DNA from: Thalia democratica
Taxonomy: Eukaryota
Assembly: GCA_965202585.1 (NCBI GenBank)
Contig: OZ241833.1
Span: forward strand, 18,848,001-18,912,000
Direction: 5' to 3'
DNA length: 64,000 bases
The translations under genes and the position numbers were made by a program. Position 1 is the first letter of the stretch. Each line of letters starts with the position of its first letter. The notes beneath the pieces were generated by a model. That model was not told where the DNA came from. It searched no databases and saw only the letters and a program-made list of their open reading frames with translations. Below are positions 42,910 to 43,089 of the stretch, piece after piece.

Positions 42910-43089
42910 CGCATTACTGAGCTCATTCTCGGTTAAGTGCGGTGATAAATCAACAGATCGCATTACTGAGTCCCAACTTGGTTAATTGCGTAAGAATTCG
43001 TACCAATTCGCATTACTGAGCGTTGACTCGGTTAATTGCGGAGAATTCTTATCTGTTTGCATTTCTGAGTTCTATCTCGGTTAATTGCA
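42910..43089 (+). repeat. Array of four 32-nt imperfect hairpins with 17-18 nt unique spacers in the gag leader
   Basis: (C/T)GCATT(A/T)CTGAG-N6-CT(C/T)GGTTAA(G/T)TGC(G/A) at 42910, 42959, 43009 and 43058; second copy at 50522-50701. Confidence 0.9.

Follow-up and report, generated by a model that had tools for sequence, protein, structure and literature searches.

A tandem array of hairpins inside the LTR of a Ty3/gypsy retrotransposon of Thalia democratica, and a satellite grown from its unit

In the retrotransposon Ty1, the gag gene starts inside the element's long terminal repeat (LTR), and the primer site lies within gag. Studies of its RNA have described a stem-loop (SL1) whose arms pair between RNA molecules, and a Gag protein that binds the 5' stems through a basic tail (PMC6844567, PMC8396678); the first of these reports adds that little is known of how LTR retrotransposons select and dimerise their RNA (PMC6844567). 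Among Ty3/gypsy elements, the Ogre elements of Lathyrus sativus were found to have given rise to satellites that grew from short internal arrays (10.1101/677575), and the maize repeats CRM1TR and CRM4TR were traced to tandem repeats from the LTR/UTR region of such elements (PMC3648361), and plants already provide precedents for the conversion of an array internal to an element into a satellite (see also the review PMC12628747). In Drosophila, the 5' UTRs of gypsy, ZAM, Tirant and accord contain tandem repeats that were described as DNA sites, with roles as insulators or enhancers or in the binding of HP1 or RpL22 (PMC8872304). Ty3/gypsy elements that bear a third, envelope-like glycoprotein gene are likewise already known, from the Tor elements of Oikopleura (PMC4402516).

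The array described here lies in a stretch of 64,000 nucleotides of T. democratica DNA (the ‘window’), where it forms a tandem repeat with a period of 49 bp, located within the LTR of a Ty3/gypsy element. Like Ty1, the element starts gag inside the LTR and carries its primer site inside gag; by analogy, it would also possess a leader hairpin whose arms could pair within or between RNAs, and a Gag with a basic, putatively RNA-binding C-terminal region. Unlike Ty1, which is copia-type and has one SL1, the family is of the Ty3/gypsy type and has units in tandem, from 1 to about 8 of them, whose stem is bulged and built in two parts; in addition, its arms are not palindromes on their own, and a role in dimerisation is here a prediction. 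As in the Lathyrus Ogre elements, a short tandem array at a fixed position in the element expands into a long satellite, but in that plant the arrays are found downstream of gag-pol, whereas the present one lies in the LTR before gag in a host that is not a plant, its unit is a conserved hairpin, and both of its junctions are assembled. As with CRM1TR and CRM4TR, two nearby loci display local homogenisation; in contrast to their large LTR-UTR monomers, a pre-existing 49-bp unit was here expanded in place inside an LTR. With the Drosophila elements the family shares polymorphic tandem repeats before gag in envelope-bearing, gypsy-type elements, and differs in that its units are RNA-strand-biased hairpins inside the LTR. 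With Tor it shares a candidate third, envelope-like glycoprotein gene in its longer copies, and the accessible part of the report on Tor mentions no leader array (PMC4402516); the 33 RT-RNase H relatives closest to the family are unnamed. Narrow phrase searches of the open literature returned no description of tandem hairpin arrays in a gypsy LTR leader, of a gag start inside a gypsy LTR, or of an invertebrate satellite inside a solo LTR; the family or the satellite may be catalogued in Repbase or Dfam.

The element and its leader

The host of the array is identified as a Ty3/gypsy LTR retrotransposon by the order of its pol domains (protease-RT-RNase H-integrase, as read in a longer copy, L032), its direct LTRs, its target duplication, its tRNA primer site and its purine tract (Table 1); in the window copy the protease, RT, RNase H and integrase have been deleted. 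LTRs of the family run from TGTAAGC to TTATA, ending in TATA rather than CA, and its copies are mostly flanked by 4-bp target duplications, here ACAC directly after the 3' LTR (51037-51040). A search of the organism's own genome (802 Mb) yielded at least 42 matches, with 40 of 164 candidates scored, and many same-strand pairs of matches 7.5-15 kb apart. The beginning of the 5' LTR is inverted together with some host flank, and the 4-bp target duplication appears reversed within that block (42636-42639). The un-inverted host joint (42397/42693) is found at half depth in X1 and X2, which represent one sample, and at full depth in X3, a pattern that fits an insertion on one allele, present only in the X1/X2 sample; the half depth in X1/X2 also gives the inversion indirect support. 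The split repeats of DIRS/Ngaro elements and the pseudo-LTRs of Penelope elements were considered as explanations of the inverted arm and dropped, because the local inversion carries the target duplication. Just outside the 3' LTR lies an imperfect palindromic repeat (51584-51862) similar to one at 22052-22264, which is probably a MITE-like element. Elsewhere the window holds, at 36482-37099 (plus strand), a stretch coding for Kelch repeats that is likely a host exon (Pfam Kelch_1, E 2.5e-25), together with a 223-residue frame with weak matches only (31233-31904, plus strand).

Table 1. Features of the element and of the related satellite (window coordinates, except for the two satellite arrays on contig C9)
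Feature	Coordinates	Strand	Remarks
Inverted block	42398..42698	-	first ~240 bp of 5' LTR plus ~60 bp of host flank; left breakpoint approximate
5' LTR, normally oriented part	42699..43424	+	4 differences in 726 bp from 3' LTR (50311-51036)
Candidate poly(A) signal AATAAA	42707..42712; 3' copy 50319-50324	+	AATAAA or ATTAAA here in most LTRs examined
Second small hairpin, upstream of array	42843..42863	+	by eye; inside the repeated unit of the most diverged subfamily
Decayed extra unit upstream of unit 1	42870..42887	+	homologous position in diverged subfamilies; by eye
Four-unit hairpin array, 5' LTR	42910..43089	+	49/50-bp tandem period; unit starts 42910, 42959, 43009, 43058
gag ORF	43136..45112	+	ATG and first ~96 codons in LTR; capsid-like domain in the middle; Asn/Arg-rich C-terminus
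Short primer binding site	43426..43434	+	complementary to the 3' end of tRNA-Asn(GTT); inside gag
Truncated pol frame	45070..46635	+	-1 relative to gag; slippery-type heptamer 45085-45091; contains 120-bp tandem repeat
Purine-rich tract before 3' LTR	50053..50071	+	same in other copies
3' LTR	50072..51036	+	TGTAAGC...TTATA; upstream part ~200-300 bp shorter than in most family LTRs
Second array copy, 3' LTR	50522..50701	+	units identical, one spacer base different
Satellite array A1	C9, about 5,488,700-5,617,110		~2,620 units if continuous; 8 of 14 10-kb stretches examined
Satellite array A2	C9, 5,651,231-5,723,574		~1,476 units; examined whole

The open reading frame downstream of the array is gag-like, as the preliminary description had stated. 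A model of its central domain (pLDDT 70) resembled the copia capsid (Z 8.3, rmsd 2.9, 79 residues aligned) and PEG10 (Z 8.1), and the first 13 structural matches were all retroelement capsids; these scores, which are modest (Foldseek E no better than 0.39, and no match in Pfam), point to a capsid fold in the predicted structure of gag. A reading of the ORF1 translation by eye revealed no CCHC knuckle, and domains related to this gag were found in frames of 1,717 residues elsewhere in the genome. The primer is taken to be tRNA-Asn(GTT) on account of rearranged copies with a longer primer match, to a sequence that is present 115 times in the genome and that corresponded to tRNA-Asn(GTT) genes at 4 of 4 checked loci. 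A search with the 15 bases that follow the LTR in gag-open copies gave 10 matches, in element copies only, and was abandoned as a route to the primer. In five rearranged copies (L003, L016, L026, L030 and L168) the tRNA-Asn match after the LTR end spans about 18 nucleotides, against about 9 in gag-open copies, and these longer matches are likely copied-primer traces in aberrant integration products.

Where the pol frame overlaps gag at -1, a slippery-type heptamer in the gag frame is followed by a G+C-rich inverted repeat (45085-45150), which together are likely a -1 frameshift signal. The start of pol contains an in-frame tandem repeat of 120 bp, or 40 residues (45520-46525, 8.4 copies), whose number varies widely among genomic copies, and the 3' non-coding part of the element contains tandem repeats of 18 bp (48703-48781) and 95 bp (48936-49406). 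Longer copies encode up to two further frames after pol, of 570 residues (L031:5410-7119, minus strand) and 404 residues (L031:3862-5073, minus strand). The larger displays a C-terminal hydrophobic stretch and 16 cysteines, found no match in sequence searches of Pfam and the PDB, and has language-model features resembling those of rhabdovirus-type (class III) fusion glycoproteins (0.97, with low recognition), a resemblance that may serve as a lead only; the smaller was assigned to no Pfam or Atlas family.

The position of the array within the RNA was judged from two features of the LTRs. In most of those examined, AATAAA or ATTAAA lies some 55-59 nucleotides after a conserved box and some 170-215 nucleotides before the first hairpin, and because this conserved poly(A) signal is upstream, the array likely belongs to U5. 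Among 41 LTRs from 42 loci, which are related to each other rather than independent, 29 sense ATGs were counted upstream of gag against 373 expected, with none at all in 21 of the 41; the minus strand of the same regions was not depleted (707 against 500 expected), and in five representative LTRs ATG was the most depleted of the 64 triplets. This purge of sense ATGs suggests that the array resides in a long leader scanned from the cap, and the two features together support, at the level of sequence, the location in the gag leader that had been proposed. Transcription would then start far upstream of the array (no single conserved initiator could be fixed among the LTRs), a poly(A) site about 200 nucleotides before the array would place the units in U5, once per RNA, and ribosomes would scan from the cap to the gag AUG.

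The same purge of AUGs, a distance between the last unit and the gag AUG that is short and fixed within each subfamily, and a copy number that varies like a dial could instead indicate that the stems tune translation or the fate of the RNA in a scanned leader, by slowing the scanning or by engaging a host export or localisation factor, and do not act in packaging. We consider this unlikely, in that scanning which depends upon stability should permit compensatory drift, such drift is scarce, and each unit alone is weak, at about -9 to -13 kcal/mol. The preliminary description had also offered an IRES-like element or a cluster of small-RNA precursors, either of which appears highly improbable: a structured stretch does precede the AUG closely, but the depletion of ATGs extends hundreds of bases upstream of the array, across the whole leader, which an IRES would not need, and neither Dicer nor Drosha would be expected to accept hairpins this short, for which Rfam gave no match at E values up to 10. 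Drosha and Dicer substrates are far longer than 32 nucleotides, with pre-miRNA hairpins of about 60 nucleotides or more and stems of about 22 bp, whereas the units of the array measure 32 nucleotides and contain 10-12 bp.

Structure, copy number and conservation of the unit

The four 32-nucleotide units first reported are present at the positions given in Table 1, with the loops CTCATT, TCCCAA, CGTTGA and TTCTAT, spacers of 17, 18 and 17 nucleotides, and 46 nucleotides between the end of the array and the ATG, all as originally read. The spacers, which had been called unique, proved to be diverged copies of one another, and TRF reports the whole as a 49-bp repeat of 3.7 copies; furthermore, the array lies in the LTR and so occurs twice, and its second occurrence had gone unremarked. 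The unit pattern has 8 matches in the window, 4 of them in that second array, against 0.00 in 100 shuffles. The plus strand folds into four hairpins with a z score of -3.9 (minus strand, -1.2), in each of which a bulged region separates a lower stem of 4 bp from an upper stem of 6 bp that includes a U.G pair. When folded in a context of 740 nucleotides, pairs of the stem core have probabilities of at least 0.96 and edge pairs of 0.74-0.98, and the U.U position of unit 4 is unpaired.

Four units are found in 39 of 39 loci of the two closest subfamilies. Homology among loops and among spacers is plain in the sister subfamily, where they are near-copies of each other. More diverged subfamilies carry from 1 to about 8 units, some of them decayed, at periods of about 25, 45, 49, 70 or 91 bp, and retain the stem with loops of 6 or 8 nucleotides and with different 3' bulges. 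Model R1 detected no unit at E below 0.5 in 12 loci of distant families (about 35-45% identity in gag), whose elements thus replicate without it, and none in 14 loci at about 56-70% gag identity, where the flanks taken may not reach the LTR. Two further observations concern the distant families. In L098 and L099, which have a long fused gag-pol frame, gag also starts inside the LTR, with a tRNA-Asn-type primer site 125 nucleotides after the ATG. L105 bears a tandem duplication of its own, of a small double-hairpin stretch about 200 nucleotides before the first ATG; L106-L108 hold fewer copies of it.

Between the two closest subfamilies, divergence amounts to 7.9% in the arms, 43.8% in the loops, 24.6% in the spacers, 21-26% in the flanks and 21% at the start of gag, as estimated from 17 and 9 LTRs in 153 non-independent pairs; in one single pair of LTRs, 5 of 104 arm positions differ as compared with 24 of 76 in loops and spacers (Fisher p 2e-6), and the difference between loops and spacers is not significant (p 0.11). 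Arms that are approximately three times more conserved than flanks and gag are evidently under constraint, and to that extent the earlier proposal of selection on structure is upheld. The covariation that had been cited in its favor does not survive. Over 132 distinct units from family copies, a set that includes decayed units, the covariation score was 0.161 against 0.171 when shuffled, with 471 of 500 shuffles scoring as high. Pair 3:30, the only one with a visible switch, is C-G in 66 units, U-A in 22 and unpaired in 41 of the 132; decayed units, together with a register shift of one base, account for part of the unpaired rows. At pair 9:22 the change affects one side, with U.G in 79 of the 132 units and C-G in 43. 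The terminal pair of unit 4, presented as compensatory, is T.C or T.T in that unit in 8 of 9 sister LTRs; it is unreliable in unit 2 as well (C.A in 11 of 31 LTR rows, one place perhaps being counted twice), and the change in unit 2 that had been read as a tolerated G-U pair is a C-to-T change at a CpG. Changes that keep a pair were not significantly enriched over the mutation spectrum of the satellite described below, either in the upper stem (4 keeping and 2 breaking among the changes that are shared, p 0.09-0.13) or in both stems together (9 and 10, p 0.15-0.18). These results support the conclusion that the arms are conserved as sequence, and not through covariation.

Conservation of sequence rather than of pairing is also what would be anticipated if the arms were DNA binding sites (enhancer, silencer or insulator repeats), with the hairpin a by-product of inverted half-sites. 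The core of the unit reads as a spaced palindrome, which in the most diverged subfamilies is perfect, and the young arms hold TAAT cores, which we take to be of the homeodomain type. Leader repeats with DNA-level roles have, moreover, been described for the Drosophila elements (PMC8872304). Against such sites stand the spacing of their halves, which is either 6 or 8 nucleotides, and lower arms that carry bulges on the 3' side only and shift in register between subfamilies; the T.G mismatch is tolerated only as plus-strand RNA, and the folding is biased to that strand; and the thousands of copies that one sample holds at a single locus show no enrichment in a second sample. Binding sites in DNA are, on balance, a possible but doubtful explanation, and the chief competitor of the one favored below.

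A satellite grown from the unit on contig C9

In a genome-wide search, the core pattern of the unit matched 78 times in forward and 3,195 times in reverse orientation, against none in either for the control, and the excess was concentrated near 5.49-5.72 Mb of C9, the contig of the window itself. In array A2 of this region, ordinary upstream LTR sequence passes directly into the first unit, and the last is followed by the 46-nucleotide leader, the gag ATG and the LTR end, which demonstrates that the hairpin unit was amplified approximately 1,476-fold within a single LTR, from a related subfamily, with the register kept at both junctions. This long array of a homologous unit, flanked in register by element sequence, establishes that an array internal to the element became a satellite. 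Array A1 displays the same 3' tail and flank as A2, and an abrupt 5' edge; the two tails are 96% identical to each other and the nearest ordinary LTRs are 88-90% identical, such that A1 and A2 likely arose by duplication of a single locus. Around A2, no matching target duplication was found. The total is estimated at about 200,000 bases, inside the stray end (LTR) of an element. Two neighboring features were recorded: between the A1 tail and a diverged LTR fragment lies a different tandem repeat of 47-48 bp, about 900 bp long and with a small hairpin of 6-nucleotide loop (L114:7480-8350, minus strand), and a third copy of the A1/A2 flank contains a solo LTR of another family, also ending GGGTTATA (L121:8970-9680, minus strand). 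LTRs of the lineage cluster once per contig (C1 57-66, C2 34-41, C4 42-44, C5 50-54, C6 48-56, C7 20-28 and C8 40-49 Mb), a pattern as expected for pericentromeric enrichment.

The junction between the LTR end and the flank of the satellite is bridged by one X1 contig. Contig depth on the unit is 240,000-585,000 in X1 and X2 and 850-2,060 in X3, while that on the neighboring LTR tail is 2,000-3,400 and 4,900-8,300, respectively; contig depth is not copy number, X1 and X2 may be the assembly's own source, and missing cover in itself proves nothing, with which qualifications the figures suggest that the satellite is real and largely absent from X3. X4, a small run whose kind is unrecorded, was left out of this evidence. 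Growth likely proceeded by unequal exchange or rolling-circle copying, and likely not under selection.

The satellite also bears on whether the short array has any function, as its units may be no more than a slippage-prone repeat, with arms homogenised by template switching of the reverse transcriptase or by palindrome-guided repair. Units are gained, lost and decaying, covariation is absent, distant families lack the unit, and the loops are the most variable part in the satellite too, through a few common variants that cluster in the loop of both arrays (heterozygosity 0.13-0.15, against 0.03-0.05 in the arms) and, in A2, also in the spacer (0.10, against 0.03 in the arms). Conversely, the rare variants of the satellite favor neither arms, loop nor spacer (0.011-0.014 in A1 and 0.007-0.010 in A2, from 1,241 and 1,440 units) and reveal no protection of the arms, which indicates that the arms are not mutationally cold as DNA. 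In addition, the arms of the short array are three times more conserved than even the start of gag, the T.G mismatch stays uncorrected, and each of the LTR loci listed, of close and more diverged subfamilies alike, has one unit or more ahead of gag. An absence of function consequently appears improbable to us.

A proposed role for the stems, and its significance

The explanation that we favor, tentatively, is that the arms are sequence-conserved RNA stems in the 5' leader, which are predicted to help in dimerisation or packaging of the genomic RNA. By analogy with SL1 of Ty1 (PAL1-PAL2), the arms would swap partners between two RNAs, or would be bound by the basic, knuckle-less tail of Gag; either activity would fix the arm sequence across units and copies, leave the loops free and give little covariation. 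Fixed arms, free loops, a strand bias and a position in the leader fit an RNA signal that acts through pairing of the arms or through reading by a protein, and the strand-specific folding, the U.G pair that gives way to C-G, the switch at pair 3:30 and the persistence of the stem despite loops of 6 or 8 nucleotides and varied 3' bulges argue for stems in RNA. Counting against them are the lack of covariation over the whole structure, the variability of the loops in the satellite as well, and the distant families without the unit. The predicted homodimer gain at the array is ordinary (-9.1 kcal/mol, with other windows at -6 to -13), and inspection by eye found no useful complementarity for kissing between loops.

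The predicted signal would also depart from retroviral precedent. A retroviral psi lies 3' of the primer site, before gag or extending into it, and presents conserved, purine-rich loops that are read by CCHC zinc knuckles. The array ends 336 nucleotides upstream of the primer site, inside the LTR, its loops are the least conserved part of the unit, and the ORF1 translation contains no CCHC motif.

The favored role and the satellite can be joined in a broader proposal, which we regard as unlikely in its entirety: that arm-swapping hairpins in U5, tunable by copy number, constitute the dimerisation and packaging signal of a Ty3/gypsy lineage, and that this signal has been caught in the course of becoming, inside an LTR, a satellite of about 200 kb that one sample carries and a close relative lacks. 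The observations are of use in their own right, in that (i) identical stems whose loops are free, occurring naturally in numbers from 1 to 8, provide a ready test set for recognition that is independent of the loops; (ii) the C9 locus is a clean record of the birth of a satellite, for which the unit of origin, the two junctions, a duplicated locus and a sample that seems to lack it are all available; and (iii) the satellite supplies a neutral standard of its own against which selection on the short array can be judged. If the broader proposal were true, and the satellite were transcribed from its LTR, the product would be a sponge, bearing thousands of sites for the element's own Gag.
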